DNA of 64,000 nt from Candidatus Latescibacterota bacterium (GCA_965219995.1 CBDCOX010000002.1:4480001-4544000), one strand, 5' to 3'. Counted from the stretch's first letter, positions 15,431 to 52,780 are shown. Notes: a model not told the origin generated them from the sequence alone. Translations and numbers: made by a program.

Positions 15431-15471
15431 CGTCAATCCCCCATCGATGTCGGAAGTCACGTGAGTCCCCG

Positions 15472-22657: not shown

Positions 22658-22695
22658 TATCAGCCCCGTTCGTTGAAGTCCGACCGACCTGACGG

Positions 22696-23490: not shown

Positions 23491-23540
23491 CCTTATTGAC
23501 TCCCGATTGAAAGACCGTCTGGAGAGCTGTCGAAATGCCG

Positions 23541-25145
23541 CTACAGTCCGACTCTCTGGTATCGTTTGCGCAAGCGCGACCTGACCTGGATCGCCGTCAG
23601 ATTCAGCGCCAGCACGATAAACATCAGCAACAGCGTGGTGGTATACACCATCGGGCGGGCGGCCTCGACATTGGGCGACTGGAATCCTACGTCATAGATG
23701 TGAAAGCCCAGATGCATGAACTTGCGCTCCAGGTGAAAAAACGGCCAGTTGCCGTCCACGGGCAGCGTGGGCGCGAGCTTCACCACCCCCGTAATCATCA
23801 ACGGCGCAACCTCGCCCGCGCCTCTGGCCACCACCAGCACGATTCCGGTCAGAATGCCGGGTAACGCCGCGGGAAGAACGACGCGCCAGATGGTCTGGAA
23901 CTGGGTCGCACCCAGCGCAAGAGAACCCTCCCGGACCTCTCCGGGCACGGATGCCAGCGCCTCCTCAGAAGCCACGATCATCACCGGTACGGTCAACAGC
24001 GCCAGCGTCAGCGAGGCCCACAGAATGCCCCCGGTTCCGAACGTGGGCGCAGGCAGCGCCTCGGGGAAAAAGAGCAGGTCCAGACTCCCGCCCACTCCGT
24101 AGACGAAGAATCCGAGTCCGAACATGCCGAAGACGATCGAAGGTACTCCAGCGAGGTTATTCACCGCGATCCGGATCGCCCGCACCAAGGGCCCCTGCTT
24201 CGCGTATTCACGCAGATACAGCGCCGCCAGGACGCCAAACGGCACGGCCGCCAGACTCATCAGAATGACCATCATGACCGTACCGAAGATCGCGGGAAAC
24301 ACGCCGCCTTCGGTGTTGGACTCGCGCGGTTCCGCGGAGAGGAATTCCCAGACCCTCTCCAGGTATATGCCCGTCTTGCCAAAGACACCCAACCGGTTGG
24401 GCCGATACGCGCGCACGACGTCAGCCACCGCCAACCGTCGTATCTCTCCGCCAGCCAGCCGGACCTCCAAATGAGGGACTTCGCTCTCCGCCCTGAGTCG
24501 GTTCAGGTCAGCGGCCAACGATTCATAGCGCGTCCAATATCGGCGGCTTGCCGCGTCCAGCTGCGAAATCCGTTCCTGCTGCGCGTCATCCGCCAGTTCA
24601 CGCCTTCGTTTTTCCAGGCGAAGCTGTTCGATTCGCCGGTTGAGATCCGATATGGCGTTGTACTCGATGTCGCGGATTCGATCCAGAAGCACGCCCGTTC
24701 GCCGCATCTGCTTCTGAAACGCCGCCCAGCCGGCCGTGCCGCCTCCGGCGACTCTCTCCTCACCCTCGAACACGCCGTCCAGAAACCCGAACAATTTTCC
24801 CCATTCGCGCCGCTCAAACACAACCGCGCTCTCGGGAAATGTCCGGTCCTGAATCCGCGACTCGTCGATCCACCGGAAGTCAACGCCGTATACGTCCCGG
24901 TTCGCCATTTTCAGTTGAACCCGGAATTCCCCGTCCCGGTTGGGAATCTCCTGCCTGTCCCACAACTGCCCCATCACAACCGCGTTGTCTTTCAGGCCAA
25001 TTGCGGTCAGGTCGGCCGGCCAGAAAAAGCCGAGCCCGTTATAGACTACCAGGCCGATCAGCCCGACGATCATCAGCACACAGAAGGCCAGCGCACCGCC
25101 CGTCAGCCAGATATATGCCTGCCCTGATTTCCAGAATCCGTTCAT
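23541..25145 (-). CDS. pstA: Phosphate ABC transporter permease PstA (long form with periplasmic insertion)
   Basis: [33 protein letters not shown]. Confidence 0.95.
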
Positions 25146-25171
25146 TCAACTCGCTCCGGACGGATCGGGAT

Positions 25172-27424: not shown

Positions 27425-27476
27425 TTCCTGATCCTACGCCCTTCCTGCCGGACCCGGAACGGGGTTCGGCCGCGGG

Positions 27477-28454
27477 TTACATGCCGGACGCTTCCAGCTT
27501 CGCGAGTTCTTCTTTAACGACCTCGAACGGCACCGGCATGTAACCGTCCTTGATGATGACTTCCTGGCCTTCTCTTGAAAAGATGTACCTGCAGAACTCA
27601 CGCACCATCGGGTCCAGGGGCTTACCGGGAGTCTTGTTGATGTAGATGAACAGGAACCGGCCCAACGGATAAGTGCCGTCCAGTACATTCTCCATGCTGG
27701 CGTCTCTGAATCCATCCTCCGGATCCTCCGCAAGAGGCACCACACGCACATTCGACGTCCTGTATCCTATTCCACTGTATCCAATCCCGTACAGGTCTTC
27801 CGCCACACCCTGGACGACCGAAGCCGACCCCGGCTGTTCCTTGACCTCATCCTTGAAATCCCCCTTGGAAAGGGCGTTCTTCTTGAAGAAGCCATAGGTG
27901 CCGGAGGCCGAATTGCGGCCGTACATGCTGATCATCGCGGATGCTTCCTCTCCGGTCCATCCCACCTCGTTCCAGCGCGTGATGTCATTCGGATGGCCCT
28001 TTCGGCGGGTCTTCGAAAAAATCGCGTCGACCTGCTTCAGCGTCAATCCATTGACCGGATTGTCCTTGTTCACGAAAACCGCCAGTGCGTCCAGAGCCGT
28101 TCGCAACGCCGTGGGCGGGTAGCCGAATGCATGCTCGAACTTATCCACCTCCGTCGCCTTCATCGCACGGGACATGGGTCCGAACTGCGCCGTGCCTTCA
28201 ATCAGCGCCGGCGGAGCGGTGCTGGAACCCTTGCCTTCAATCTGGACGTTCACATTCGGATAGTATTTCCGAAAGCCCTCGAGCCACAGGGCCATCAGGT
28301 TATTCATTGTATCCGATCCGATGCTGCTGGCGCTTCCCGAAATTCCCCTCGCCTTTGTGTAGGCCGGAATTCGCGGGTCGACCTCCACGGTCTGCGCGCT
28401 TACAGGAACGACGGCGAACATCAGAAAGATCAGACCGGCGACTGTTTGAAACAT
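27477..28454 (-). CDS. pstS: Phosphate ABC transporter substrate-binding protein
   Basis: GSDTM, GKGSSTAP, PMSR, GRNSASGT; signal peptide from MFQTV with an AGGAGG RBS. Confidence 0.95.
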   Translation of the reverse strand: MFQTVAGLIFLMFAVVPVSAQTVEVDPRIPAYTKARGISGSASSIGSDTMNNLMALWLEGFRKYYPNVNVQIEGKGSSTAPPALIEGTAQFGPMSRAMKATEVDKFEHAFGYPPTALRTALDALAVFVNKDNPVNGLTLKQVDAIFSKTRRKGHPNDITRWNEVGWTGEEASAMISMYGRNSASGTYGFFKKNALSKGDFKDEVKEQPGSASVVQGVAEDLYGIGYSGIGYRTSNVRVVPLAEDPEDGFRDASMENVLDGTYPLGRFLFIYINKTPGKPLDPMVREFCRYIFSREGQEVIIKDGYMPVPFEVVKEELAKLEASGM

Positions 28455-28563
28455 GTCTGCACTCCTCCTTGATTCAGGGTGATCGTCTGAAGATATTCGG
28501 GCGTCAATGTAACCGGCCAATGTTACGTTCGTGTGTCGATTGCCGGACGTCCGGAGAAAGCCA

Positions 28564-29538
28564 TTAGAATTTGTAGAACACCGTCATACGCGGGATGACC
28601 TCGGTATCCGCGTCCGAGGACGCGTAAATCGTAGCCATTACATTGGGCATGATGTGAATATTCCCGGCCGGCGCGATGTCGACGCCTCCGATGACCATGG
28701 TTTCCCCGTCCTGCTCCGTGCTCTTGTCGGGATCGTAATAGTCGAGGCGGGCGAATAGTTGGACCCGGGGCCTGACGTTTGCGGCGCCGAATACCGATGC
28801 ACCTCGTATCTGCACGTCGCCGCCGCCGCTCCCGTTCCGGTTCATTCTGAAAAACCCTTCAATTCCCCCACGGAAAGCCTCTCCTGACATACCCAGCATA
28901 CCGGCAAACGTGACGCGGTCTCTCCCTTCGGGTTTGCCTTCCCAGTCCAGGTAGACCGTGGCTTCGATGACGTCCGTCGGTTTCACGTGAAGTAACGTGT
29001 ACAGCTTCTTGCCGTTGTCGACTTCCGGCCGCTGTCCGCTCCCGTTGCCGAACATCAGTTGAGCGTTCACCCTTCCCGAACCATCCAGCCTTCCCTTGAA
29101 TCCCACCCCGATGTCTGCGGACGAGCCGATCTTGCGCATATCCATGATCGTTTTTGCGATCGACCGGTAGCCCCAGATTCGTTCGGACACGTTCCAGGTG
29201 GGCGTGCCGAACAGCCCCATATTGACGGCCCGACCGTTCGCCCGGTACCGCAGATAACCGTGCTTGACGAACGGCCGCATCTTGTCCTCTCGGCCAAATC
29301 CCGCATCATTGGCTTCGTAACGTACCCGGCCGGACCAGCGGTCGTTCCATTTCATATCGTACGTCAGGTATATGCGCCGGAACCTGAAGCCGTTTTCGTT
29401 CTTGTCCGTTCCGCTCGCAACGTAGTAATAGTCGCCGAAAGCCACCCCCTTGATCTTGCCTTCGACGCCTTCGGCAGTTCCGAACAGGCCGAGGCTCAAC
29501 ACGGCGACGATTCCCAGGATGGTCCCGTTTAGTCGCAT
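28564..29538 (-). CDS. Outer-membrane porin, putative phosphate-selective
   Basis: Signal peptide MRLNG..., GFRFRRIYL, amphipathic beta strands, C-terminal Phe; first gene of the pst operon. Confidence 0.75.
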   Translation of the reverse strand: MRLNGTILGIVAVLSLGLFGTAEGVEGKIKGVAFGDYYYVASGTDKNENGFRFRRIYLTYDMKWNDRWSGRVRYEANDAGFGREDKMRPFVKHGYLRYRANGRAVNMGLFGTPTWNVSERIWGYRSIAKTIMDMRKIGSSADIGVGFKGRLDGSGRVNAQLMFGNGSGQRPEVDNGKKLYTLLHVKPTDVIEATVYLDWEGKPEGRDRVTFAGMLGMSGEAFRGGIEGFFRMNRNGSGGGDVQIRGASVFGAANVRPRVQLFARLDYYDPDKSTEQDGETMVIGGVDIAPAGNIHIMPNVMATIYASSDADTEVIPRMTVFYKF

Positions 29539-29720
29539 TTCTCCTCCCTGCTGTCTTCGGTTTATCGATCGACCCGCGCCGATTCCCGGCGGTTGCGGCG
29601 GTTCACCCCGTGATGGTCCGGGGGCGGCGGCTCGCCCGGAAGGCTGAACGCCCGAATTTTGACCTCGAACGCAGACCCGTTGCCCCCCGTCTTCCGCATC
29701 CTGAACCAAGGTGTACAATA

Positions 29721-29872: not shown

Positions 29873-29927
29873 GTCATTGAATCGTAACGATTCCGTAACC
29901 CGGTCTAAACAACCGGTTCGTTACTTT
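29873..29927 (+). promoter_or_regulatory. Pho-box array and -10 upstream of the TonB receptor operon
   Basis: GTCATT 29873, GTAACG 29884, GTAACC 29895, TAAACA 29906 (11-bp period); TACTTT at 29922 lies 10 nt after the last unit. Confidence 0.78.
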
Positions 29928-30015
29928 GACGCCGATCAGAGGGAGCGGGGCCGCCGACACGTTGAATCCGGAACGCGACGGCCTGAAGAAACATCAGCCG
30001 AGGAGCGAGAATCCC

Positions 30016-32808
30016 ATGTTACGAATCGCGATCATGCTGTTGTCTGCCGTAATGGTGCTTTCACTCTCCGCCGAGGAGATGGGAGTTGTTCAGGGGCTGA
30101 TTGTCGACGGCGAAACAGGCGAGCCGCTGATTGGGGCCAACCTGATCGTCTACGACACCGGGGGCCGGCCGGCCTTCGGCACGACGACCGACCTGGACGG
30201 GAGGTTCAGCCTCAGACTGCCGTCCGGCAGGCACAGCATCGAGATTTCCTATGTGTCCTACGCGACGAAAACGGTTACCGGCGTCGAGGTAGAAACCAAC
30301 GGGACTTTCCAACTCAGCGAAGCACTTTCGCCGGAAGCAATCGAAGTCGAAGCGATTACGGTCACGGCCAGACCCGAGCGCTCCAGCGAAGTCTCGATGC
30401 TGGTTATCCAGCAGAAGGCTGGCGTGGTTACGGACGGCATCAGTTCGGAACTGATGAGCAAGGCTTCATCTTCGGACGCCGGGGATGCGCTCAAAAGGGT
30501 GACCGGAATTACCGTGGTGGGCGGGCGCTACGTTTACGTTCGCGGCCTGGGAGAGCGCTACAGCAATACACAGGTCAACGGCGCGCAGATGCCCAGCCCC
30601 GAGCCGAACCGCCGCGTGGTTCCGATGGATATTTTCCCGGCGGGACTCCTGGAGAATATCCAGGTGGCCAAGACCTTCTCTCCCGACCAGCCGGGCGATT
30701 TCTCGGGCGGATCGGTCCAGATCAGAACGAAGGATTTTCCGGACCAACTGACGCTCTCACTCTCGGCCTCCACCAGCTTTCATTCACAGACCAGCTTTGA
30801 AGATATCCAGAGCTACACGGGCGGTTCGTGGGACTTCCTGGGCGTTGACGACGGTGGGCGGGACCTGCCCGAACTGGTAAAAACACAGGCGGCGGAACAG
30901 GCCGTTCGCAAGCGCGGGCGCTTTTCCACGTCGGGTTTTACCGCTGAGGAAATTCAGACCCTCGGCCGGTCGTTCAACAATGTCTGGTCGCCGGAAACCC
31001 GGACGGCCCCTTTGAACCAGAGCTACAGCTTCAGCGTCGGTAACGCCCTTTCTTCCGAAAACAGGGAACTGGGCTTCGTGCTGTCCCTGACGTACGACAA
31101 CAGCTACAGGAACGGGAGTCAGGAATGGAACAGCTACCGGCTTACGGCCAAAGACGGCCGGGAATTCCTCTCCCCATTCACCAGTTACACGGTCAGCGGC
31201 ACCACCAATAACGTGCTGTTGGGGGCTCTCTTCAACAGCAGCTTCCGTTTCTCGCCGCTTCACAAGATCAGCCTGAAGACAATCTACAACCGCAACACCG
31301 ACGACGAAGCCCGCGGCTATACCGGGTTCAACTCCGACCGCGGCACCGACCTTCGCAACCTCAGGCTTCGCTTCGTGGAGCGCGGCGTATTTACGGGGCA
31401 GCTTGGCGGAGAACACCACATCGATCCCCTGTTCAAATCGAACCTGAACTGGCAGATCGGCTATGCCGAAGCCACGCGAGACGAACCGGACAACCGCGAA
31501 GTCGTTTACGAAATGCGGAATCAGCGATGGACTTTTTTCGACATCACCCAGAGCGGAAGCCGGTTCTATTTCGATCTTGCCGACAGGGAGTGGAGCGGAA
31601 AGCTTGACTGGACGGCGCCTATCCAGTCTCCCGCCGGCCTGCCCGCCAAATTCAAGCTCGGGGGTGTATGGCGAAAGAAAGACCGCACCTTCGACGCCCG
31701 GCGCTTCCGCTTCGAACAGTCCAGCGGCATTCAACGTCACGTGGACCTGACGGCCGACCCGGAAATCATCTTCGCCGAGGAAAATATCGCGCCCGGGCGC
31801 TTCGAACTCAGGGAAACCACCCGCGCCAACGACAACTACTCGGCCAGACAGGATCTCTCGGCGGGTTATATGATGGTGGACATGCCCGTCGCGGCTTCGT
31901 GGCGCCTGGTGACCGGGGTCAGGGTCGAATCGTCCAGACAGGAACTGAGATCATTCGACCCCTTCGCGCTCAATACCGAGCCCATCGTCGTCGTACTGGA
32001 CAATACCGACATCCTGCCGGGAATCAATCTCGTGCGGAAGCTTTCCGACCGGTCCAATCTGAGGGCAGCCTATTCCCGCACCCTGGCGCGTCCCGATTTC
32101 CGGGAACTGGCTCCCTTCGAATTTACCGACTTTGTAGGCGGCCGGGCGGTCGTGGGGGACACGTCGCTGACCCGTACCGTTGTCGACAACTACGATCTCC
32201 GCTGGGAGAACTTCCCCAGACTGGGGGAGTTGGCGGCCTTCAGCGTTTTCTACAAGAAATTCCACGATCCCATCGAGCAGATCATCCAGCCCACCGCCCA
32301 ACTCCGGGTCAGTTACGCAAATGCGGCGTCTGCCAGCAACTACGGCGTCGAATTCGAGTACCGGCGCAGGCTGGACGCCCTCGTTCCCGACCTTGAGAAA
32401 TTCTCGGTAAGCGCAAACGTCACATTGGTCAGATCCAAGGTTGAAATCCACCCCGCCAGCGGGGTGCAGACCTCTTCCGAGCGGGCGCTGCAGGGCCAGT
32501 CGCCATTCGTGGTGAACCTGATGCTCGGGTACGACAATAATGAAGCGGGCACGTCGGCGAATCTGCTTTACAACGTTGTCGGACGGCGAATCAGCGAAGT
32601 AGGGGCCCAGAGACTGCCGGACGTCTTCGAACAGCCCCGCCACCAGGTCGATTTTACGTTCAAGCAGAGAATAACGCCGGTTGTGAGGCTCAATCTTTCC
32701 GCGAAAAACCTGCTCGACTCGACCGTCCTCTACAAGCAGCAGGAGGAAGTTTTCACACGGTACAAAAGAGGTCGGTCCATCTCCCTCGGAATCGGCTACG
32801 AACTCTAG
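30016..32808 (+). CDS. TonB-dependent receptor (carboxypeptidase-like N-domain), Pho-regulated candidate
   Basis: Signal peptide MLRIAIMLL, plug YVRGLGERYS...PSPEPNRRVVPMDIFP, RPDFRELAPF, barrel C-terminus GIGYEL. Confidence 0.92.
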   Translation: MLRIAIMLLSAVMVLSLSAEEMGVVQGLIVDGETGEPLIGANLIVYDTGGRPAFGTTTDLDGRFSLRLPSGRHSIEISYVSYATKTVTGVEVETNGTFQLSEALSPEAIEVEAITVTARPERSSEVSMLVIQQKAGVVTDGISSELMSKASSSDAGDALKRVTGITVVGGRYVYVRGLGERYSNTQVNGAQMPSPEPNRRVVPMDIFPAGLLENIQVAKTFSPDQPGDFSGGSVQIRTKDFPDQLTLSLSASTSFHSQTSFEDIQSYTGGSWDFLGVDDGGRDLPELVKTQAAEQAVRKRGRFSTSGFTAEEIQTLGRSFNNVWSPETRTAPLNQSYSFSVGNALSSENRELGFVLSLTYDNSYRNGSQEWNSYRLTAKDGREFLSPFTSYTVSGTTNNVLLGALFNSSFRFSPLHKISLKTIYNRNTDDEARGYTGFNSDRGTDLRNLRLRFVERGVFTGQLGGEHHIDPLFKSNLNWQIGYAEATRDEPDNREVVYEMRNQRWTFFDITQSGSRFYFDLADREWSGKLDWTAPIQSPAGLPAKFKLGGVWRKKDRTFDARRFRFEQSSGIQRHVDLTADPEIIFAEENIAPGRFELRETTRANDNYSARQDLSAGYMMVDMPVAASWRLVTGVRVESSRQELRSFDPFALNTEPIVVVLDNTDILPGINLVRKLSDRSNLRAAYSRTLARPDFRELAPFEFTDFVGGRAVVGDTSLTRTVVDNYDLRWENFPRLGELAAFSVFYKKFHDPIEQIIQPTAQLRVSYANAASASNYGVEFEYRRRLDALVPDLEKFSVSANVTLVRSKVEIHPASGVQTSSERALQGQSPFVVNLMLGYDNNEAGTSANLLYNVVGRRISEVGAQRLPDVFEQPRHQVDFTFKQRITPVVRLNLSAKNLLDSTVLYKQQEEVFTRYKRGRSISLGIGYEL

Positions 32809-32906: not shown

Positions 32907-34394
32907 GTGAAGTTGACAACACGTTTTGCACTTTTCGTCGTCCTGACGCTGGGTTTTCCCGCCTTGCTTCAGGCGCAGACCATCTCCCCCGCCCGGGTCG
33001 ATTTCGACGGCGACGGCACGGTCGGGTTCGGAGATTTCGTTCTGTTCAGTCAGAACTTCCAATCAGACCATCCGATGTACGATCTGGGCGGTGACGGCGC
33101 GGTGGGTTTTCCCGATTTCGTCGCATTCGCGAGCGCTTTCGGTCAGACCGTCGCCCGGATGGAACGACCGGGAATGGTCTCGGGCAATATCACCTCGGAC
33201 GAGGTATGGACGTCGGACCGCGACTATCTGCTGTCCGGTCCGGTCTTCGTCCGGGACGGCGCCACGCTCATTGTCATGCCCGGCACGACGATCTATGGCG
33301 AGGGGGCAACCAACGGCACGCTGATCGTCGCGCAGGGCGGCAAACTCATCGCTGACGGAATCGCTCGAAACCCGATTGTGTTCACGAGCGATCAGTTCGA
33401 GGGCGAACGAGACAGGGGGCAGTGGGGCGGTCTGATTATCAACGGCCGTGCGCCGGTCAATACCGGTTTGCCCGCATACGGCGAGGGCGACACGGGTGAA
33501 TACGGCGGCACGGACCCGAAGGACAGCAGCGGCATCCTGCGGTACGTTCGCGTGGAGTTCGCGGGCATCGAGTTTTCTCCGGACAATGAGTTGAACGGCA
33601 TCGCGTTCCAGGGGGTGGGCTCCGGCACTGTGGTGGACTATGTGCAGGTGCACTTCAACCAGGACGACGGCATCGAGTTCTTCGGCGGGACGGTGAATGC
33701 GAAGCACCTGTATTGTACGGGGATCCGGGACGACTCGTTCGACTGGACGGACGGCTGGACGGGCAAGGGACAGTTCTGGGTGGCGCAGCAGCGCGGCGAC
33801 GACGCGGACAACGGGTTCGAAGCCGACAACAACGGCGACGACAACGAGGCCACACCGCGTTCGAACCCGACGATCTACAACGTGACGCTGGTAGGGGATC
33901 CGGACGGACCGGAAAGCGACACGGGTCTGCTGCTACGCGAGGGCACGGCGGCGACCCTGCGGAACTTCATCGTGATCGGGTTCAATGCGGGCGGCCTGGA
34001 CGTCGATACGGAATCCTCGATTACACTGGCAAACAACGGTGAATTGTCGGTTGGGAACTCGATTTTCTACAACAACGCGACGGATATGGACGAGCAGGGC
34101 ATGCGCACGATGGGCAATTTCAACACGGACGGCGACGGGATCGACGAGGGGACGTGGGCGATGATGTCGGGCTTCGACAACTCGGAGGCGGACCCGGATC
34201 TGCGGTCGCCGTATAGCCAGCGTTCGCCCAATTATCAGCCGTCTTCCTCTTCGCCGGCGGTGAACGGGGCGGTGCCCGTCGCGAGTCCGCCTTCGGACGG
34301 GTTCTTCGAAGCCGTGGACTTTATCGGCGCGATGAGCGCGGACGACGACTGGCTTGCCGGGTGGACCACCAGCGAACAACCCGCGGGAGAGTAG
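32907..34394 (+). CDS. Secreted protein: EF-hand/dockerin-like pair + parallel beta-helix (pectin-lyase-like) domain
   Basis: Signal peptide; DFDGDGTVGFGDF / DLGGDGAVGFPDF; GQWGGL, YVRVEFAG, DDGIEFFGG, DDSFDW acidic beta-helix motifs; AAGGAG RBS. Confidence 0.82.
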   Translation: MKLTTRFALFVVLTLGFPALLQAQTISPARVDFDGDGTVGFGDFVLFSQNFQSDHPMYDLGGDGAVGFPDFVAFASAFGQTVARMERPGMVSGNITSDEVWTSDRDYLLSGPVFVRDGATLIVMPGTTIYGEGATNGTLIVAQGGKLIADGIARNPIVFTSDQFEGERDRGQWGGLIINGRAPVNTGLPAYGEGDTGEYGGTDPKDSSGILRYVRVEFAGIEFSPDNELNGIAFQGVGSGTVVDYVQVHFNQDDGIEFFGGTVNAKHLYCTGIRDDSFDWTDGWTGKGQFWVAQQRGDDADNGFEADNNGDDNEATPRSNPTIYNVTLVGDPDGPESDTGLLLREGTAATLRNFIVIGFNAGGLDVDTESSITLANNGELSVGNSIFYNNATDMDEQGMRTMGNFNTDGDGIDEGTWAMMSGFDNSEADPDLRSPYSQRSPNYQPSSSSPAVNGAVPVASPPSDGFFEAVDFIGAMSADDDWLAGWTTSEQPAGE

Positions 34395-34550: not shown

Positions 34551-34700
34551 CAGGAGACCGGACGGGCTCGAACGAAGCGTGACCGCTTCAGCGCCTGTTC
34601 GGTCTTTCTTGTCTTTTTTACCGGTTCAACGTATTATTCAGTTGGAGTTGCGATGTTTTTTTTCAATGGAGAAAGAAACGGCCGTCGAAGCTTTTTCTCA

Positions 34701-35171
34701 ATGACGAAGCGGATTTTCCGGGGCGCGCTCGCCGTCCTGCTGGCATCGGGTTGCGTCGACAGCAATGGGGATACGGACTCGCCGGAGGGGCTCGCACGCG
34801 CGGTCGTCGCCGCCCTCAACAAGGAAGACATCGCGGCGCTTCATGGCCTCCGGGTCCACAGGGAAGAATACCTCAAGAACATCCTGCCGGCATTTCCACC
34901 CATCAATTTCTCGCCGGAGTTCGCCTGGAACAACCTGAACAAGAGATCCATCATCGGCGTGAACAAATGGATCAGACGATACGGCGGAGAGAGTCTGAGT
35001 TTTGCCGGCATCCGCTTCGAGAAGCCGGAGGAACCCTATAAGGGACTGAAACTTCTGCGTGGAACCGTGTTGAGCGTGCGAACCCAGAGGGGCAAACACG
35101 TGGATCTGCGCATCCTCGGATCGGTGGTTCTCAGAGATGGCCGGTACAGGCTTCTGAGCTATGACGACTGA
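34701..35171 (+). CDS. Hypothetical lipoprotein
   Basis: Lipobox LLASGC after a basic/hydrophobic signal; overlaps the next gene. Confidence 0.75.
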   Translation: MTKRIFRGALAVLLASGCVDSNGDTDSPEGLARAVVAALNKEDIAALHGLRVHREEYLKNILPAFPPINFSPEFAWNNLNKRSIIGVNKWIRRYGGESLSFAGIRFEKPEEPYKGLKLLRGTVLSVRTQRGKHVDLRILGSVVLRDGRYRLLSYDD

Positions 35172-36153
35172 ACGAAATGCCTTCAGGGAAGCGCGAAACA
35201 GGCTGATGTCTCTGGGCATCGGCCTTCTGTTTATGGGGCATGTTTTCCCGCTCTGTGCGGCGGACTATGCCTCGGTGCGGACCCATGAGGGAAACAGCGC
35301 GCTTCCGGTTTCCCTAACCACGCTCGAACGTGAGCTTCTTGAGGACGTCCGCGACGGGCGCCTGGACCGGTTCGACCTGATCGAAGCCGGCCTGATCGCA
35401 TCGGGGGCCACCGACCCCGTTCTTCTCTCCCGGTACAAGCGGCGCTTCAGCCACCTTCAACAGCACGCCCTGCTTTCCATTCCCTATCTCATGCACACCG
35501 AACAGATGGCCGCCGAGTTGTTTCACTATCTTCACCGATACGTCCTCAGGCAGTTCGATACCCGTCCGGTCACCGTGATCAACCTGCTGTCCGACGGCCG
35601 CTACAACTGCATTACGGCCTCGTGGCTGTACATCGCGCTGGCGCAACGGTACGACCTGCCCGCAACGGTGATCAAGACCCCGATGCATGCGTACGTGCGA
35701 CTGGAAACCCGTCCGCCCATTCCCATCGAAATGACCGTGCCCGTTGGCGGCGTCGACCACGCGCAGACCCGTGAGCAGGTCATTCAGACCCTTCTGGATG
35801 CGGGGCTGGTCGATCCATCGCAGATTGAATCACACGGGGCCGACGATCTTTTTCTCGAATACCAGCGTCACCAGTTTCCGCTGGAACCGGTCCAGATCCT
35901 TTCCGTACTTTTCTACAACAGCGCGCTGCACGCGTTCGAACGGGGCGACCCGCACCTGGCGTTCCGAAATGCCCTCGGAGCTCAGCTTTCTCATCCGGAA
36001 GACAGACAATATCAACAGCTTACATTCGATATGGGTCTGGCCTACGCCACCTTTCTCCGTCAGCGGGGCGACCACGACGGCGAGAGCGGAATCGTCACCT
36101 ATCTTCGCGGTATGAAGCAGCTGTTCGCGTCGAACGTTCCCGTCGGGTTCTGA
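35161..36153 (+). CDS. Transglutaminase-like cysteine hydrolase fold with C-terminal helical (TPR-like) region
   Basis: GRYNCITAS (Cys), PMHAYVRL (His), IEMT (acidic) triad-like spacing. Confidence 0.65.
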   Translation: MTTERNAFREARNRLMSLGIGLLFMGHVFPLCAADYASVRTHEGNSALPVSLTTLERELLEDVRDGRLDRFDLIEAGLIASGATDPVLLSRYKRRFSHLQQHALLSIPYLMHTEQMAAELFHYLHRYVLRQFDTRPVTVINLLSDGRYNCITASWLYIALAQRYDLPATVIKTPMHAYVRLETRPPIPIEMTVPVGGVDHAQTREQVIQTLLDAGLVDPSQIESHGADDLFLEYQRHQFPLEPVQILSVLFYNSALHAFERGDPHLAFRNALGAQLSHPEDRQYQQLTFDMGLAYATFLRQRGDHDGESGIVTYLRGMKQLFASNVPVGF

Positions 36154-36166
36154 TGGACATCATGCG

Positions 36167-37702
36167 ATGAAAAGCAAGGTATCCGCACTGCGTCTTCCCG
36201 CATCGGTCGACCCAATCAACGTATGGGGGAACGCCGTCGGTTCCCATACCTGCGTACCGACAGACGATACCGTGCACAATCAGACGTTCCTCGACACGTT
36301 CGATTGGCGCCTGTTCAATAGAAACCTGGTGCTGATGAAGGAACAGGAACGCTACCTTCTCTACAGCCTGCCGGACCGTGAAACCGTCGCGTCGCTCGGC
36401 ATGCCGCGCGGGTCCGAACCGGTGTTCAGCACGGATTTTCCCGAGGGACCCCTGAAGAAGGTCCTGCATGCACACGTGAGCGTACGGGCGCTGTTGCCCC
36501 TCGCGCGCGCCACGACGCGCCGGCAGACCTTGCGTGTACGCAACAGCAACGAAAAAACCGTCCTGATCGCAACGATTGAACAAGCGCGGTTGACCGACGC
36601 CGTGCGAGACGGACAACCGATCAACACCGTCGTGCTGCGGTCGATCCGGGGATATGAGAAGCATCTGCGTAGACTAAACCGTTCGCTGCTGGACGCTGGC
36701 GCCCAACCTCAGACCGAAGACCTGTTCCACGCCGCCATGCGGGCATCCGGGAGGGAACCGGGAGGCTACACCTCAAAGCTCAACGTCGTTCTGGAACCCA
36801 ACCTTACCGGCGCGGAGGCCGTCAAGCGGATTCTGGAGCACCTGTTCAGAACGATCAGGTGTAATGAAGCGGGCATAAAGGATGACGTCGATACGGAGTT
36901 TCTGCACGATTTCAGGGTGGGAATCCGGCGGACGCGTTCAGCCCTCAGCCAGATCAAATCCGTACTTCCCGATGGTCGGGTTGCCCGTTTCCGGAAGGAC
37001 TTTTCCTATCTCGGAAAACTCACCAACCGACTGCGCGACCTGGACGTCGCCCTGTTGAAGCGGGACGCGTACCGGTCTCTCCTGCCAGGATATCTGCGGC
37101 CTCGACTGGACCCCCTCTTCGAATCGCTCCGGGCGGAACGTACGGGCGAACACCGGCGTCTCGCCGCCGCCCTGGACGGCGACAGGTACCTGAAATTCGC
37201 CGCGGACTGGGAGGCGTTTCTGAAATGCCCGCCGGAGTTCCCATCGCCGAGCAATGCCGAAGCGCCGGCGGTCGGCCTGGCGCGGAGATTCATTGGCAAG
37301 AGATACGGCCGCGTGATCGAATTGGGGACCGCAATCGACGCGCCCACACCCGACGCTGAACTGCACCGGCTTCGGATCGAGTGCAAGAAATTGCGCTATC
37401 TCCTGGAGTTTTTCTCGTCGCTTTACCCAACTCAAGAAGTCCGGCTGATTGTCGAGCGCCTCAAGAGCCTGCAGGACAATCTGGGTGACTTCAACGACCT
37501 CTCCGTCCAGCAGGCCGACCTGAAGTCGTACCTGAAAGCGTTGCCCGCGGAGGGGACTCACCCGGAAACCTTTGCCGCCGTCGGCGGTCTGATCGGATGC
37601 CTGTACCGCGAGCAGCAGACCGTCCGCGCGGCCTATTCGAAGACATTTATGCGGTTCAATCAGGCGGAGGTCGCCGCCACCCTCCGACGCCTGTTCGCCT
37701 GA
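36167..37702 (+). CDS. CHAD-domain polyphosphate-binding protein with degenerate CYTH-like N-terminus
   Basis: EFLHDFRVGIRRTRS, RLRDLDV, ELHRLRIECKKLRY, LQDNLGDFND CHAD motifs; N-terminal FLDTFDWRL. Confidence 0.92.
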   Translation: MKSKVSALRLPASVDPINVWGNAVGSHTCVPTDDTVHNQTFLDTFDWRLFNRNLVLMKEQERYLLYSLPDRETVASLGMPRGSEPVFSTDFPEGPLKKVLHAHVSVRALLPLARATTRRQTLRVRNSNEKTVLIATIEQARLTDAVRDGQPINTVVLRSIRGYEKHLRRLNRSLLDAGAQPQTEDLFHAAMRASGREPGGYTSKLNVVLEPNLTGAEAVKRILEHLFRTIRCNEAGIKDDVDTEFLHDFRVGIRRTRSALSQIKSVLPDGRVARFRKDFSYLGKLTNRLRDLDVALLKRDAYRSLLPGYLRPRLDPLFESLRAERTGEHRRLAAALDGDRYLKFAADWEAFLKCPPEFPSPSNAEAPAVGLARRFIGKRYGRVIELGTAIDAPTPDAELHRLRIECKKLRYLLEFFSSLYPTQEVRLIVERLKSLQDNLGDFNDLSVQQADLKSYLKALPAEGTHPETFAAVGGLIGCLYREQQTVRAAYSKTFMRFNQAEVAATLRRLFA

Positions 37703-37720
37703 AGACGGAAAGCACATTCC

Positions 37721-38470
37721 ATGGCTACAGTGGCCCTGTACAACATCAAGGGCGGGGTGGGGAAGACCGCCGCCGCGGTGAATCTGGCCTACCTCGCCGC
37801 GCGCGACGGCGCGCAGACCATTCTGTTCGATCTGGACCCGCAGGGATCGGCAGCATTCTACTTTCGCATCAAACCCTCAAGGAAACTTCCGGGTCGAAAA
37901 TTTCTGCGAGGAGGGCGCAGGGTAGAGAAGCGCATCCGAGGGACCGACTACGAAAATCTGGACCTGCTGCCGTCCAACCTGTCGTTCCGAAACCTGGACA
38001 CGACGCTGAGTAAACTGAAGGCCTCCTCAAAACGGCTCCATCGCATTCTGAAACCGTACCGCAAGACATACGACTTCATCTTTCTCGACTGTCCGCCTGG
38101 CATAGGCCTGGTATCGGAAAATATGCTCTTTGCCTCCGACGTCGTTCTGGTTCCCTGTATACCGACGACGTTGTCCATGCGTACCTGTGACCAGCTGGTA
38201 CGTTTCTTCGATTCCAGAGGCCGGGACGTCTCCCGGATCTACCCGTTCTTCGCGATGGTGGAGAAACGGAAACGCATGCACAGCGAAATTCTGGCGACCG
38301 GCGGAGACCCCGAACAGCGGTTTCTGAAGACCCGGATTCCCTACGCGTCGGAAGTCGAGAAAATGGGTATCCACCGGGAACCGGTCCCATGTTTCGCGCC
38401 CGGTTCGCCCGCCGCAGACGCGTATCAGAACCTTTGGGATGAACTCAAGGGGATCGTGCCGAGACGCTGA
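37721..38470 (+). CDS. ParA/MinD-family ATPase (orphan, no parB)
   Basis: Deviant Walker A KGGVGKT, DLDPQG, LDCPPG; many Lys/Arg residues. Confidence 0.93.
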   Translation: MATVALYNIKGGVGKTAAAVNLAYLAARDGAQTILFDLDPQGSAAFYFRIKPSRKLPGRKFLRGGRRVEKRIRGTDYENLDLLPSNLSFRNLDTTLSKLKASSKRLHRILKPYRKTYDFIFLDCPPGIGLVSENMLFASDVVLVPCIPTTLSMRTCDQLVRFFDSRGRDVSRIYPFFAMVEKRKRMHSEILATGGDPEQRFLKTRIPYASEVEKMGIHREPVPCFAPGSPAADAYQNLWDELKGIVPRR

Positions 38471-38607
38471 CGGGCGACGACTCTGTCCGTCAAATCCCCG
38501 TACCGTAATGACTTGCGAGCCTGAAACCGATTGACTGAGGCATTGCTGTGGATTATCTTGGCGCTGTATAGACCTCGATCACGCGGGTACACCACGAGAA
38601 GTGCGGC

Positions 38608-40716
38608 ATGAATCTGGACGATCCAACACTGTATACCAACCGGGAAATCTCCTGGCTTCGCTTTAATGAACGCGTCCTCGAGGAAGCCCGCGACCCCGGG
38701 AACCCCTTGTTGGAGCGGGTGAAGTTTCTCGCCATCGTGGCCAACAATCTGGACGAGTTTTTCGAGATTCGCGTTGCCGGGCTGCTCCAGCAAATGGAAG
38801 CCGGCGTACCCGACGCCGGCCCCGACGGGCTGTTACCCGAAGAATTGTTCGAAGCCGTTTCCCGGGAAGCCCATCGGATGGTCGACGAGCAATATGCCTG
38901 CTGGAACGAAGAGCTGCTGCCCGCGCTGAAAGAGGCCGACGTGCATATCCGCTCGGCGCAGGATCTCAGCACCGCGGAACAGGCATTCGTCCGCGACTAC
39001 TGGCTTGGCGAACTCCATCCTGTTCTGACGCCGCTCACCGTCAATCCGGCCCATCCCTTTCCCCGAGTGGTGAACAAATCGCTTTGCCTGGCCGTACTGC
39101 TCAGGGACAGCGAAGGCGACACACTGTTCGGTGTGGTTACGGTTCCGCGCCTGCTGCCGCGTCTCATCCGCCTGCCCAGGGAAGACGAAGGCCGGCGTGT
39201 GGATTACGTGTTTCTGGCCGACCTCGTGAGGGCGCACATCCCGGAATTGTACCGGGGATATGAAATCCTGGGCACGGCCCCGTTTCGCATCACGCGCAAC
39301 AGCGACCTCTATCTCGACGAGGAAGAAGCCGACGACCTGCTCCTGGCCATCGAAGACGAACTCAAACGCAGGCGCAAGGGGGATACCGTCCGATTGGAAA
39401 TCGACGCGGCCGCGCCAAAACAGATCGTACGTCGACTTCGGGCGATGTACGATCTGGGCGAAAAACAGGTTTACCGGGTGAACGGTCCGGTCAATCTCAA
39501 CCGTCTGATGATGCTCTACGGTGCGACGCGGCGACCGGACCTGAAGGACCCGCCGTACCATCCTGCGGAATACCCGTTCGCCGAAGACCTCGACCAGCTT
39601 TTCGCCGAGATCCGGCAACGGGATATTCTGCTGCATCACCCATACGACTCGTTTCAACCGGTCGTCCAGTTTGTCCAGTCGGCGGCGAGGGACCCGGACG
39701 TCCTGGCCATCAAACAGACGCTGTATCGCACAACCGAGGACTCGCCGATCATGGATGCGTTACTCAAGGCGGCCGAGGCGGGCAAAGAGGTCACCGTCAT
39801 CGTGGAACTCAAGGCCCGCTTCGATGAAGCATCCAACATCCGGTGGGCGCGGCAACTCCAGGATGCCGGAGTATACGTCGCCTACGGCGTAGTGGGCCTG
39901 AAGACCCACTGCAAATTGTCCATGCTGGTCAGGCGCGAAGCCGGGGGCCTCCGCCGCTACGCCCACATCGGCACCGGTAACTACAACCCGTCAACGGCGC
40001 GCGTCTATACGGATCTGGGTCTGATGACAACCAGGGAGGACATCACCAGCGACGTCGCCGAAGTCTTCAATCTCCTGACGACGCAATCCGACCGTCCGGA
40101 AGTCAGAAAACTGCTGGTTGCGCCGTTCAATATGATGGACTGCCTCCTTGGCAAAATCGATCGTGAGATCGAACATGCCAAGAGCGGACGGCCCGCCCGC
40201 ATCGTTTGCAAGATGAACTCCCTCCAGGACGAAAAGGTGGCCAAAGCGCTATACAAGGCGTCCCGGAACGGCGTGGACGTCGACCTGATCGTCCGCGGGA
40301 TCTGCTGTATCCGTCCGGGGATTCCCGGTGTCAGCGACCGCATTCGCGTCAGGAGCATTGTCGGCAGATACCTCGAGCACAGCCGCATATACATGTTTCA
40401 GAACGGATCCGATCCCGAGATTTACACCGGGAGCGCGGACTGGATGCCCCGCAATCTCCGCCGCCGCGTTGAGATTCTCTGTCCCATCGAAGACCCGGTA
40501 CTTGTCCGGCGAATTCAATCCGAGATTCTGTCTCCCTGCCTGGCGGACAACCTCAAGGCCCGCGAACTCCTTCCGGACGGCGACCATCGTCGCATCGGGC
40601 CGTCAAACGGCAGACCGGCTCTTTCATCGCAGGAGGTGATGATGGGCCTCGCCCGTGGAGAAACCATCGACATTCCGGATTTTTTCGCCGGCAACGGTCT
40701 GCAGCCGGATTCATAA
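38608..40716 (+). CDS. ppk1: Polyphosphate kinase 1
   Basis: NREISWLRFNERVL, LLHHPYDSF, ELKARFDE, KTHCK, GTGNYN, LEHSR, SADWMPRN. Confidence 0.97.
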   Translation: MNLDDPTLYTNREISWLRFNERVLEEARDPGNPLLERVKFLAIVANNLDEFFEIRVAGLLQQMEAGVPDAGPDGLLPEELFEAVSREAHRMVDEQYACWNEELLPALKEADVHIRSAQDLSTAEQAFVRDYWLGELHPVLTPLTVNPAHPFPRVVNKSLCLAVLLRDSEGDTLFGVVTVPRLLPRLIRLPREDEGRRVDYVFLADLVRAHIPELYRGYEILGTAPFRITRNSDLYLDEEEADDLLLAIEDELKRRRKGDTVRLEIDAAAPKQIVRRLRAMYDLGEKQVYRVNGPVNLNRLMMLYGATRRPDLKDPPYHPAEYPFAEDLDQLFAEIRQRDILLHHPYDSFQPVVQFVQSAARDPDVLAIKQTLYRTTEDSPIMDALLKAAEAGKEVTVIVELKARFDEASNIRWARQLQDAGVYVAYGVVGLKTHCKLSMLVRREAGGLRRYAHIGTGNYNPSTARVYTDLGLMTTREDITSDVAEVFNLLTTQSDRPEVRKLLVAPFNMMDCLLGKIDREIEHAKSGRPARIVCKMNSLQDEKVAKALYKASRNGVDVDLIVRGICCIRPGIPGVSDRIRVRSIVGRYLEHSRIYMFQNGSDPEIYTGSADWMPRNLRRRVEILCPIEDPVLVRRIQSEILSPCLADNLKARELLPDGDHRRIGPSNGRPALSSQEVMMGLARGETIDIPDFFAGNGLQPDS

Positions 40717-40780
40717 AAAGGACGGAGAACTTACCATCCGTCCTCCGTCTTCCTTTTTTCCGGTCGAAATTGATGTACGG

Positions 40781-42334
40781 CTATGCGGACTGAAGCGTAA
40801 AGCCAAAGGTGGAACCCGCTCCCAGTACGCTCGTCGCGTAGACCCGTTCCCCGTGGGCCTCAACGATATGCCGGACAATCGAAAGTCCCAGTCCGGTTCC
40901 ACCCTGTCTTCTGGATCGCCCCGCATCCACCCGGTAGAACCTCTCGAAAACCCTCGGCAGCGAGTCGGAAGCGATCCCGATGCCCGTATCTGTAACCTCG
41001 AGTGCAAACCGTTCGCCCGTAGCGCCCGGCACTGAGGCCTCATCCGTGTTGCCGGGATGAGCCGCCAGCACAACGTTCGGTGCGTTCGCCGCGTCCGTAC
41101 CCGCGAAAATTTCCTCCGACATAAGCCGCCTTCCGGCCACCCGCACCTGCCCGCCCCGGGTTGTGTATTTGACGGCGTTGTCGAGCAGGTTGACCACGGC
41201 CTGCTCGATCAGATTCGGGTCGCCGTGGACCACCGGTTCGTCCTGAATCGAGATTTCAACGACGATGTCATTTGCTTCGGCCTGACTCCGGATTGAATCG
41301 TACGCCCTGTCCACCACCCGTCGAATCGCGAAATCCTCGATTTCAATCGGCGGCGTGTCGGACTGCAGCCGCGAGAGATCGAGCAGATCGTCCAGCAGCA
41401 CCTGGAGCCGGTCCGAATGCGTGCGGATGGTCTGCAAGAATCGATCGGCGGTGCCGCGGTCCTCGAGCGCGCCCTCGGCAAGCGTATCCGCACACCCCTT
41501 GATCGCCGTGAGCGGCGTTCGTATTTCGTGGGATACATTGGCCACGAAATCCTTGCGCGCCCGCTCCAGCCGATGCAATTCGGTCGTGTCGTGGAAAACC
41601 GCCGCCACACCCATCCCAACGTTCTCCCGACGGATCGGTGCCACGTGCACGTCGAAGTGTCGTTCGGGAAGACCGGACGCCGTCATGGTCCGCGTCAGGG
41701 TCTCGCCGGTTTTCAGGGTGTGTTCGATGGCTTCCTGAACCCTTACGTCGCGGATCATTTCCACCTGCGGACGGCCTTCCGAGGGGGACGTCACGCCGAA
41801 GAGCCGGTCGAACGTGTGGTTTGTGAGGAGAACGCGGCCGTCGTGCCCCGTGACGAGGATGCCGACGGTGATGTCCGCGAGAATCGCCTCAAGCCGTGAC
41901 TTTTCACCGAGGATGTCCGCGGTGTGCTCCTGGATCTGCCGCCGCGCGGACGCCAGAGACGTTGCCAGATCGGTGATTTCCGGGGGAGAGGCGATGAAAG
42001 GCGGCTCACGAGCGTAATCGCCGCCGGCCATGGCACGCGAGAATTCCGTCAATTTCCGTATCGGTTGTAATACGGAACGTGAGAAGATGGCGGCCAGCAC
42101 CAACGCCATGGTCAGCCCCAGCGCGGCGGCAAGCAGGACGGCCGGATTGACACGCTCCTGCAGGCGACCCGCGTGCTCCACCGTCACGAGCGGGAAGGGT
42201 TCCCCAGTGATCGCGTCTGTGCCTTGCGTCACCGGGGTATCCTGTATCGTACCCGTCAGGGTAACATGCACGGCCGCCAGGGTCGTCACGACGACGGCCG
42301 CGCAAATCAACGACAACCGCCAGTGCAATTTCAT
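40781..42334 (-). CDS. phoR: PhoR-like sensor histidine kinase (TM-HAMP-PAS-HisKA-HATPase)
   Basis: DFVANVSHEIRTPLT, NLLDNAVKY, RVFERFYRVD, GGTGLGL. Confidence 0.9.
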   Translation of the reverse strand: MKLHWRLSLICAAVVVTTLAAVHVTLTGTIQDTPVTQGTDAITGEPFPLVTVEHAGRLQERVNPAVLLAAALGLTMALVLAAIFSRSVLQPIRKLTEFSRAMAGGDYAREPPFIASPPEITDLATSLASARRQIQEHTADILGEKSRLEAILADITVGILVTGHDGRVLLTNHTFDRLFGVTSPSEGRPQVEMIRDVRVQEAIEHTLKTGETLTRTMTASGLPERHFDVHVAPIRRENVGMGVAAVFHDTTELHRLERARKDFVANVSHEIRTPLTAIKGCADTLAEGALEDRGTADRFLQTIRTHSDRLQVLLDDLLDLSRLQSDTPPIEIEDFAIRRVVDRAYDSIRSQAEANDIVVEISIQDEPVVHGDPNLIEQAVVNLLDNAVKYTTRGGQVRVAGRRLMSEEIFAGTDAANAPNVVLAAHPGNTDEASVPGATGERFALEVTDTGIGIASDSLPRVFERFYRVDAGRSRRQGGTGLGLSIVRHIVEAHGERVYATSVLGAGSTFGFTLQSA

Positions 42335-42556: not shown

Positions 42557-42826
42557 TCACGCGGCCTGTAGCGGGGCCAGTTCTTCGGGGTCAAGCAGAG
42601 GGACGTTCAGCTCGTTCAACACCTCGTTGATCTGGTCGGAAGTCACTTGATCCGGAGCAGTGATCTCCAAACCTATCGGATGTCCTTCCGCCTCATAGTC
42701 CACCAACAGACCCATCCGAATCTTCTCCGTCCTCACGCTTCTGGCCATGGCCGTTCTGGGAAAGTACAAATACGCTGCCAGCGGCCGGCCTTTTCGAAAC
42801 GTAATTTCCAAATATCGATCTTTCAT
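42557..42826 (-). CDS. DUF2283-family protein (putative antitoxin)
   Basis: AAYLYF...LLVDYEAEGHPIGLEI signature; ATGA overlap with the upstream gene. Confidence 0.82.
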   Translation of the reverse strand: MKDRYLEITFRKGRPLAAYLYFPRTAMARSVRTEKIRMGLLVDYEAEGHPIGLEITAPDQVTSDQINEVLNELNVPLLDPEELAPLQAA

Positions 42827-43098
42827 CGTCCCTTGCTTTCTCTGATCGGATAAGCGGTGACAATCACCAGCAACTGTTCTTCAAAGTCCGGTTCGACAAT
42901 AACCTCCCAATCCACCTGATGATACCGAATTTCTACGACATAACGGCCGTAATACTCGTCTGGCCGAAAGCCTCCTGCACGGCTTAACATCTCTCTCAGC
43001 GCGATTTCCGTGAAATCCCTCTGCTCCATTCGTTTTTCGGCGTGCGGGGTGATTTCGAGTTCCCATTTCCACCAATCCGGCCAATTCATCTTTGCCAT
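42823..43098 (-). CDS. DUF4258-family protein (putative RelE/BrnT-like toxin)
   Basis: ITPHAEKRMEQR...VIVTAY signature. Confidence 0.82.
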   Translation of the reverse strand: MAKMNWPDWWKWELEITPHAEKRMEQRDFTEIALREMLSRAGGFRPDEYYGRYVVEIRYHQVDWEVIVEPDFEEQLLVIVTAYPIRESKGR

Positions 43099-52510: not shown

Positions 52511-52780
52511 GATAATATATATCCGATTTAACACGCCGAGTCAATACCCTCTCCTCACTTTTTCGCGACTGCCGGCTGTTTTCGAAATTGGCTGTGATCT
52601 TTGTTGAGAATTATCACGAAAAACTCACAATATTGATGGAACTTCCCGTATATTATTGCTGCGCTGAGGATTTTTGATTGATCCGGAACCCGCTAAACAC
52701 CGGGATCACGTATCGAGATTCCCGCCGGGGCTGATGGAATGGCGTGGTACCCAAAAGTGACAACAGTAACGGGGTACGGC

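Follow-up and report, generated by a model that had tools for sequence, protein, structure and literature searches.

What is a ParA-type ATPase doing between a CHAD-domain protein and a polyphosphate kinase? The question is raised by a stretch of DNA from a Candidatus Latescibacterota bacterium, whose genome (5.44 Mb in two contigs) is 98.6% complete. The whole stretch analyzed, referred to here as the window, comprises 64,000 nucleotides (nt; C2:4480001–4544000), and positions are counted from its start unless prefixed by the contig label C2. On the plus strand, a CHAD gene (36167–37702; 511 amino acids (aa); Pfam CHAD at residues 222–450, E = 1.6e-60) is followed head to tail by a gene for a ParA-type ATPase (37721–38470; 249 aa; Pfam AAA_31/CbiA/ParA-type P-loop, E = 4.7e-36) and by ppk1 (38608–40716; 702 aa; all four PPK1 domains, N, middle, C1 and C2, with E values of 1e-40 to 7e-77). 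The gap between CHAD and ParA is 18 nt, and that between ParA and ppk1 is 137 nt. A first-pass annotation of the window had pointed out these consecutive genes, their common strand, the short CHAD–ParA gap and the surrounding phosphate island, all of which agree with our open reading frames (ORFs) and Pfam assignments, and had proposed that the three genes together position polyphosphate (polyP) granules. Our analysis favors a narrower version of that proposal, in which CHAD–ParA is a conserved two-gene module, the ParA-type ATPase would act as an ATP-driven organizer of polyP granules, and the CHAD protein, with its pseudo-TTM–CHAD architecture, would be the adaptor. We assign this reading a probability of roughly 55%.

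The conserved unit is the CHAD–ParA pair and not the CHAD–ParA–ppk1 trio. ParA orthologues (E ≤ 1e-80) were found in every genome examined from the same genus (14/14), in a single genome from a second genus and in all 16 genomes of a genus from a sister family, and each of the 30 loci fetched from these relatives has a CHAD gene directly upstream on the same strand. A wider survey, limited to one genome per species and to the best 80 of 594 confirmed ParA loci (44–56% identity), gave a similar picture, 69 of the 80 having a CHAD ORF, usually of ∼505–545 aa, upstream of ParA and in the same orientation. All but four of these 69 CHAD ORFs (65) lie within 60 nt of ParA, with 4-nt overlaps in 41 cases and 1-nt overlaps in 6. 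The recurrence of the 4-nt overlap in many phyla implies translational coupling, given what is established for overlapping stop and start codons. CHAD lies downstream of ParA in two further loci (L057 and L087), and none was found beside ParA in the remaining nine, one of which (L060) ends at a contig edge. According to the record titles, the 80 loci span at least 14 phylum-level groups and include Dadabacteria, Desulfobacterota/‘delta’, Calditrichota, Chlorobi, Latescibacterota, Lentisphaerota, KSB1, Actinomycetota, Acidobacteria, Dormibacterota, Entotheonella, Bacteroidota and Alpha-, Beta- and Gammaproteobacteria. Cultured carriers, again by record title, are Nitrosomonas europaea ATCC 25978, Tritonibacter scottomollicae, Sedimenticola selenatireducens, Desulfobacter latus and Marinospirillum celere. 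Chlorobium tepidum probably carries the pair as well, judging by the orthology of its CHAD protein described below.

With respect to ppk1, its membership in a conserved unit was considered and rejected. It adjoins the pair only in the 15 loci from our organism's own genus among the 30 from relatives, and a PPK1 gene lies within 6 kb in just 13 of the 80 wider loci. Other families found within 6 kb were a SixA-like histidine phosphatase (13/80), an ABC ATPase (11/80), PPK2 (8/80), Ppx-GppA (7/80) and a stand-alone CYTH protein (7/80). When the 611 neighboring ORFs of at least 100 aa were clustered, no family occurred in more than 13 of the 80 loci, so that no conserved third gene emerged. Thus, of the system first proposed, the CHAD–ParA pairing stands and ppk1 becomes a neighbor specific to the genus, with a promoter-like element of its own. 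The same division applies to the expectation that the closest ParA homologues would be linked to CHAD and ppk genes, which holds for CHAD (30/30 and 69/80 loci) and fails for ppk1 as a conserved unit.

Phyletic co-occurrence leads to the same pair. We searched 125 genomes of the organism's own phylum, each at least 90% complete, with profiles of the ParA family (A1) and of the CHAD partner family (A2). The ParA profile scored at least 360 bits in 38 genomes, a truncated frame in one more reached 262 bits, and all other hits, including the other full-length ParAs, stayed at or below 134 bits; this ParA accordingly defines a distinct, CHAD-linked clade. Partner-type CHAD is present over its full length in the same 38 genomes, scoring at least 536 bits in 36 of them and being split into two pieces in the other two (G007 and G021). 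It is also present in the one genome whose adjacent ParA is truncated. The remaining 86 genomes have neither the ParA clade nor the partner, the next best CHAD match being 249 bits. The co-occurrence that the first-pass annotation had suggested scoring is therefore found for ParA and partner-type CHAD. Chance adjacency of the two genes is excluded by the 30/30 and 69/80 loci and by this profile, and we conclude that the pair is real, either ancient or widely transferred, and co-inherited.

The genome itself offers a contrast with ordinary partition genes. The absence of parB, first noted for the window, extends well beyond it: the only ParB_N match in the whole genome is at C2:5036618–5036896, some 0.5 Mb from the CHAD–ParA pair, and it adjoins the second ParA of the genome (C2:5037327–5037761). 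A genome-wide search also identified the 511-aa partner as the sole CHAD protein. A two-domain PPK2 is encoded elsewhere in the genome, and a search of the genome for Ppx-GppA found none.

What cargo might such a pair act on? The partner offers an indication. Its AlphaFold2 (AF2) model is of high confidence (pLDDT 93.3, pTM 0.90), and its C-terminal part, residues ∼205–511 (36779–37699, plus strand), is a long CHAD domain that resembles CtCHAD from C. tepidum. Specifically, Foldseek matched this domain to 6QVA at 40% identity (E = 4.6e-20; TM-score 0.94 on the target) as well as to 6QV7 and 3E0S, and a phmmer comparison of the partner with 6QV7 gave E = 6.3e-66. CtCHAD comprises residues 207–522 of Q8KE09 and was crystallized with its central pore occupied by a polyP 9-mer, and its polyP binding was mapped by mutation to H253, R256, R260, R296 and R418/Y419, according to the text of that report (PMC6537752). 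The equivalent residues of the present partner, H247, R250, R254, R290, R410 and Y411, are invariant in all 42 members of the partner family, every one of which is also matched by the Pfam CHAD model. Moreover, a ParA-linked partner from Chlorobiaceae matches CtCHAD at E = 5.6e-137 over residues 207–521, which makes CtCHAD an orthologue within the partner family. This orthology would tie the partner to polyP, in keeping with the localization of CHAD proteins at polyP granules that papers citing Tumlirsch & Jendrossek 2017 report.

The N-terminal portion of the partner (residues 1 to ∼200; 36167–36766, plus strand) is a different kind of domain. In the AF2 model it forms a β-barrel whose strands run from E5–10 to E152–159, and Foldseek matched it, at 8–13% identity, to TTM/CYTH proteins that include YgiF (5A60), ThTPase, SaTTM and class IV cyclases, with 3BHD and 7NSF among the structures found. 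Its first strand reads V-S-A-L-R-L, and the ExExK motif is absent both from this strand and from the 40 partner sequences inspected in an alignment of 55. The few invariant residues of the domain (K130, G162 and Y163, conserved in 42/42 partners) lie elsewhere, in two loops discussed below, and we refer to the domain as a pseudo-TTM (CYTH-like) domain that is predicted to dock ParA. As an observation on domain architecture, the Entotheonella TSY1 locus (L057) has a Ppx-like gene upstream on the opposite strand, as read from its N-terminal residues, then ParA and then a 727-aa CHAD ORF whose start, by its N-terminal sequence only, looks like a histidine phosphatase where other partners have the pseudo-TTM domain.

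The TTM fold of this domain raises the possibility that the protein is an enzyme, either a class IV adenylate cyclase or a tri/polyphosphatase, with ParA being a chromosome or plasmid partition gene that neighbors it by chance or else a responder to the enzyme's product. An adenylate cyclase function (‘ACAci’) is how the text of PMC6416229 reads a CYTH-CHAD protein encoded beside parA and ppk in Acidithiobacillus. We regard this explanation as highly improbable here, since the first strand lacks ExExK and since the Pfam CYTH model matches none of the 42 partner family members at E ≤ 0.01, yet recognizes the stand-alone CYTH family found near the pair in 7 loci (one representative tested). The invariant residues of the domain are also those predicted to contact ParA, the true parAB genes of this genome are located elsewhere, and a chance neighborhood is incompatible with the locus counts and the phyletic profile.

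A direct link between the two proteins is supported by structure prediction. The 1:1 complex of ParA (A1) and partner (A2) was modeled in three runs alongside three controls, giving an ipSAE of 0.66 (0.66, 0.72 and 0.64 in the individual runs), compared to 0.00 for the best of the controls. Between runs, at least 95% of the contacts are the same, and the partner retains a pLDDT of at least 87. In calibration, 58 of 80 solved complexes attained the ipSAE mark used, as did 2 of 110 mismatched pairs, although these counts hold only roughly for a model that is 1:1 rather than an ATP dimer and that was built from our own unpaired alignments. We know of no solved ParA–TTM complex that the predictor could have remembered. 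Contacts involve ParA residues 48–51, 72–74, 76, 81 and 219 and partner residues 123, 128–131 and 160–163, and they coincide with invariant residues of both families. On the partner, the first group falls within residues 123–131 (36533–36559, plus strand), including the invariant K130, and the second is the segment 160–163 (36644–36655, plus strand) with its R-G-Y motif, in which G162 and Y163 are invariant and for which the expected error is lowest. On ParA, the interface model and conservation together single out residues 48–76 (37862–37948, plus strand), where contact segments 48–51 and 72–76 flank a Lys/Arg-rich segment. Overall, the model supports binding of ParA to the partner. It is also in line with two suggestions made from the window alone, namely that CHAD would act as an adaptor for ParA and that docking might use the degenerate CYTH-like N-domain, where all partner contacts indeed fall.

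The predicted contact residues are instructive when the linkage of the genes is taken into account. The 73 CHAD-linked ParAs retain F48 in 71 cases, R49 in 72, K/R73 in 73, D76 in 72, D81 in 73 and R219 in 72. Of the ParAs that have no CHAD gene beside them, five, one from an Acidobacterium and four from Methylococcales, largely preserve these residues (the exception being the Methylococcales ParA of L103, with Gln at 219), and a single partner-type CHAD (E = 1e-131 to 1e-162) is encoded at another site in each of their genomes, without a ParA gene in the 1.5 kb around it. Three Bacteroidota ParAs (L104, L110 and L098) have lost R49, K73, D76 and R219. A partner search (A2, 1e-5) of these three genomes and of that of L087 returned none, a result obtained with no positive control and in genomes whose completeness was not given. 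Among the loci without an adjacent CHAD, the Bacteroidota loci L104 and L110 share a conserved ∼245-aa ORF after ParA, and of the four from Methylococcales (L069, L080, L095 and L103), the last three have a large ORF with a conserved N-terminus in that position.

Turning to the ATPase, the protein belongs to a very large family of ∼247-aa proteins that share 54–60% identity. Its AF2 model (pLDDT 88.2) shows alternating strands and helices, and full-length profile matches to 8RAY, 6IUB, 1WCV, 1ION and 1G3Q identify a Soj/MinD-type fold. The closest solved relatives are Myxococcus xanthus ParA (8RAY, E = 1.3e-31) and Helicobacter pylori Soj (6IUB, E = 6.1e-26), and the protein scores below every NCBIfam equivalog cut-off (86.1 vs 180 bits for ParA_partition and 42.7 vs 212.9 bits for minD_bact). 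Its catalytic elements are intact: the deviant Walker A motif KGGVGKT (residues 10–16 with signature lysine K10; 37748–37768, plus strand) is invariant in 26/26 family members, as are, across A1, D37 and D39 of switch I (DLDPQ) and D123 of Walker B (FLDCPP). At the C-terminus, a short tail follows a conserved L-W-x-E-[IL]-K helix. Clade-specific Lys/Arg-rich segments are located at residues 49–73 and 182–188. The second of these overlaps the stretch MVEKRKRMH (residues 179–187; 38255–38281, plus strand), which contains the invariant R183 and near which extra basic residues have been gained. The intact KGGVGKT motif and the strong basic patches had both been highlighted in the first-pass annotation; both are present, and the basic stretches prove to be conserved features of the clade. 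They make some polyanion-binding surface on ParA plausible.

Whether that polyanion is DNA is less clear, and here the idea that this ParA acts on the nucleoid meets with difficulty. Using M. xanthus ParA as a reference (full-length number equal to chain number +19, checked at D60A), R183 aligns to the Arg of ‘MFDSR’. The text of a recent preprint describes R238E in M. xanthus ParA as abolishing non-specific DNA binding (bioRxiv 10.1101/2025.03.14.642875). The residue aligned to R238 in the present protein is E211, in the segment 211–219 (38351–38377, plus strand) that ends with the invariant predicted partner contact R219.

These observations invite a variant of the granule-organizer model, already raised as an alternative in the first-pass annotation, in which polyP and not DNA is the matrix, with ParA–ATP residing on the granule surface or on polyP chains by means of its Lys/Arg-rich segments, where the CHAD partner recruits or releases it. 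The Glu at the position of the DNA-binding Arg would fit such an arrangement, as would the conserved basic segments at 49–73 and 182–188 and the placement of a basic segment between two predicted contact segments. The equivalent of the ‘MFDSR’ Arg (R183) is nevertheless invariant, and a matrix identical to the cargo offers no obvious route to spacing. We consider polyP in place of DNA as the matrix quite unlikely.

Based on the evidence above, the granule-organizer model can be set out as a series of steps. The partner would bind polyP through its long CHAD domain and thereby decorate the granule. Its TTM/CYTH barrel, catalytically dead, would have become a docking surface, with the loops carrying K130 and R161-G162-Y163 binding a clade-specific surface of ParA made up of F48-R49, K/R73-G-T-D76, D81 and R219. 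ParA itself would be an intact deviant-Walker-A ATPase and hence presumably an ATP-dependent dimer, as that motif implies, which in its ATP-bound form would associate with a polyanionic matrix, either nucleoid DNA or polyP itself, through its Lys/Arg-rich segments. Many granule-bound partners would then govern the ATPase cycle or the residence time of ParA, such that granules stay separate, lie at even distances and pass to both daughter cells, much as McdA/McdB do for carboxysomes. The broader claim, that this represents a widespread and so far unrecognized polyP-granule ParA system in at least 14 phylum-level groups, with a pseudo-enzyme as adaptor and an ATPase that may ride polyP rather than DNA, strikes us as somewhat short of an even bet.

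Several observations weigh against the granule-organizer model. Asp or Glu occupies the R238-equivalent position in 24 of 26 family members, and the conserved Arg of ‘PRNVR’ that precedes R238 is Tyr208 in the present ParA; with Glu211 and Tyr208, DNA binding by the classical surface is doubtful, and a nucleoid ratchet of the usual kind cannot be taken for granted. Chromosomal ParA has a ParB pocket (L150/L152/L155, corresponding to I128/L130/E133 here) that is distinct from the docking site predicted for the partner, and the alignment of 55 partners contains no conserved basic N-terminal activator peptide of the ParB or McdB type, which together leave stimulation of the ATPase by the partner unsupported. 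The 125 genomes of the phyletic profile are related and represent only about four or five independent lineages. Similarly, ParA and partner are correlated in their pairwise distances (r = 0.81, n = 55; reached by none of 2000 permutations), and this may reflect shared descent only, as it is not independent of the descent of the species. Finally, the pair shows signs of decay in some relatives and would thus be dispensable in some settings: the ParA of G011 (L012) has an in-frame TAA, that of G017 is truncated to 159 aa, and the CHAD genes of G007 (L005), G021 (L017) and L071 are broken into two or three frames, although assembly errors may account for such cases. As for where the partner does dock, the site would lie shortly after switch I (D37-x-D39), going by the linear sequence, and may be analogous to the MinE site on MinD, where the preprint text cited above places a MinE contact near Motif 2 via E53.

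Several of these same observations are compatible with a role other than spatial positioning, in which ParA is a nucleotide-dependent switch for granule assembly or turnover that controls CHAD oligomerization on polyP or the access of PPK/PPX. A switch would account equally well for the linked genes, the predicted interface and the connection to polyP, and a docking site outside the ParB pocket and the loss of the canonical DNA-binding Arg agree with it. In addition, the oligomeric state of CtCHAD is described as shifting upon polyP addition (PMC6537752, text), and the pair is often near PPK1, PPK2 or PPX. Such genes are, however, within 6 kb in only 18 of the 80 loci (13 of the 51 with full flanks), and the characterized relatives ParA, McdA and MinD, like other family members, are known to work by spatial patterning. 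We judge the switch unlikely and retain the granule-organizer model as the preferred reading.

If that model is correct, the CHAD–ParA module would be the first ATP-driven organizer of a bacterial storage granule and would include the first ParA partner that docks by a folded domain rather than by a short peptide. It would give the CHAD ‘phosins’ a role and add a new mode of cargo recognition by ParA ATPases. The spacing and inheritance of polyP granules is an acknowledged open question, and we view the module as the best candidate yet for an energy-driven organizer of these storage granules. It provides concrete handles in the form of two genes, some ten predicted interface residues, a partner family with a polyP-bound crystal structure and cultured carriers.

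With respect to expression, the spacer between ParA and ppk1 (38471–38607) contains two blocks, AATGACTTGC and TTGACT-17-TATCTT, whose conservation extends over 9 species of the genus. The latter is a promoter-like element (38531–38559, plus strand) whose hexamers are largely invariant in 9 loci from the 9 species, and it suggests that ppk1 has its own promoter and can be transcribed alone; its weight comes from conservation only, as promoter and terminator scan counts were at chance level. In one metatranscriptome run, contigs of ∼97–99% identity include one that spans the CHAD–ParA junction (37542–37914) and another that spans the ParA–ppk1 spacer (38428–38773). These RNA contigs are a weak hint of expression, for they cannot prove a single transcript and may stem from DNA carry-over, and bins of low or no cover (e.g. 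40066–40256) are uninformative. A coral metatranscriptome and several other runs also yielded contigs of 35100–40800, or of close relatives, at 95–100% identity.

The pair is preceded on the plus strand by a TonB-dependent receptor gene (29926–32808) and three ORFs of 495, 172 and 330 aa (32907–34394, 34653–35171 and 35161–36153), for which no Pfam or NCBIfam family scored above threshold and only weak transglutaminase-like and weak dockerin-like matches were obtained. The 330-aa ORF stops 13 nt before the CHAD gene, and co-transcription with CHAD may be possible. The phosphate island provides context on the minus strand, with phoU-pstB-pstA-pstC-pstS and a porin O/P-like gene at 21977–29718; its PstC-like permease (25172–27424; 750 aa) carries, before BPD_transp_1 (465–744), a WD40/β-propeller-like stretch (∼245–413) that is unusual for PstC. 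Convergent with ppk1 is a gene for a PhoR/PnpS-like sensor histidine kinase (40781–42334, minus strand; PnpS 360 bits vs a cut-off of 400). Elsewhere in the window are two PhyH dioxygenase genes (14648–16284, minus strand), a 1425-aa protein consisting almost entirely of WD40 repeats, with 24 WD40 stretches (52739–57016, plus strand), and overlapping small ORFs of 89 and 91 aa (42557–43098, minus strand) that match DUF2283 (weakly, below the cut-off) and DUF4258 and that may be a toxin–antitoxin-like pair.

How does the module relate to what has been described? In the literature searched, which comprised the text of papers, no paper assigns a ParA to polyP granules, in agreement with the view taken at the outset that no ParA-based polyP system had been characterized. 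In that literature the CHAD–ParA cluster is drawn twice, both times for Acidithiobacillus, and its ParA is never interpreted. In the available text of a 2025 review (PMC13052382), AlgP is the sole polyP positioning factor listed, with ATP dependence marked as unknown and treated as an open question, and in that of a 2025 review on polyP and chromatin, ParA comes up only in connection with carboxysomes and ParB. The accessible text of a 2026 mBio paper describes the molecular basis of polyP spatial organization as unclear, and as independent of McdA in Synechococcus elongatus, and the precise function of CHAD ‘phosins’ as unknown.

The nearest precedent by gene neighborhood is the folD-ppk-parA-CHAD cluster of Acidithiobacillus, which is reported to be highly conserved across that genus. 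The likeness is one of neighborhood, and its ParA is labeled there as a plasmid or chromosome partition protein (plasmid partition protein in PMC10892726), with no CHAD or polyP role given in the text of the two papers concerned (PMC10892726, PMC6416229). On the partner side, E. coli YgiF (5A60) likewise has a TTM barrel followed by CHAD, at 13% identity to the present protein. The TTM domain of YgiF is active and carries ExExK, a motif that the partner lacks. Its CHAD domain is short and without a central pore, as stated in the text of PMC6537752, whereas that of the partner is long. The long CHAD is shared with the phosin CtCHAD (Q8KE09; 6QV7, 6QVA and 3E0S), an orthologous domain in which the polyP-binding residues are invariant. 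That study covered residues 207–522 only; its text does not discuss the N-domain or a ParA neighbor and does not contain the words ParA and ATPase (PMC6537752).

Among ATPases, the chromosomal ParABS proteins (8RAY, 6IUB) have their Walker B, switch I and deviant Walker A motifs and the Arg of ‘MFDSR’ (R183) in common with the present ParA, which differs from them in having no ParB partner, in the replacement of R238 by Glu, in its I128/L130/E133 pocket and in its score against the partition model (86 vs 180 bits). The McdA/McdB system resembles the module in that an orphan ParA/MinD-type ATPase gene lies beside that of a cargo-bound adaptor, and the proposed principle, a cargo adaptor that governs a matrix-bound ATPase to give even cargo spacing, would be the same. 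Unlike in that system, the cargo here would be polyP granules, and no McdB or carboxysome genes were found among the neighbors of ParA in the window or of the 80 loci. The adaptor here joins CHAD to a pseudo-TTM domain that is folded, whereas McdB is small and disordered, and the ATPase is closer to chromosomal ParA (1.3e-31) than to McdA, whose structures 6NON and 6NOO are matched at only ∼1e-11. Finally, AlgP of Pseudomonas aeruginosa and the PhaM, PhaF and PhaH proteins share the outcome proposed here, the even spacing of storage granules. They are described, in the text of the review cited above (PMC13052382), as single DNA-binding tethers with no known use of ATP, whereas the CHAD–ParA module would bring an ATPase to the task.

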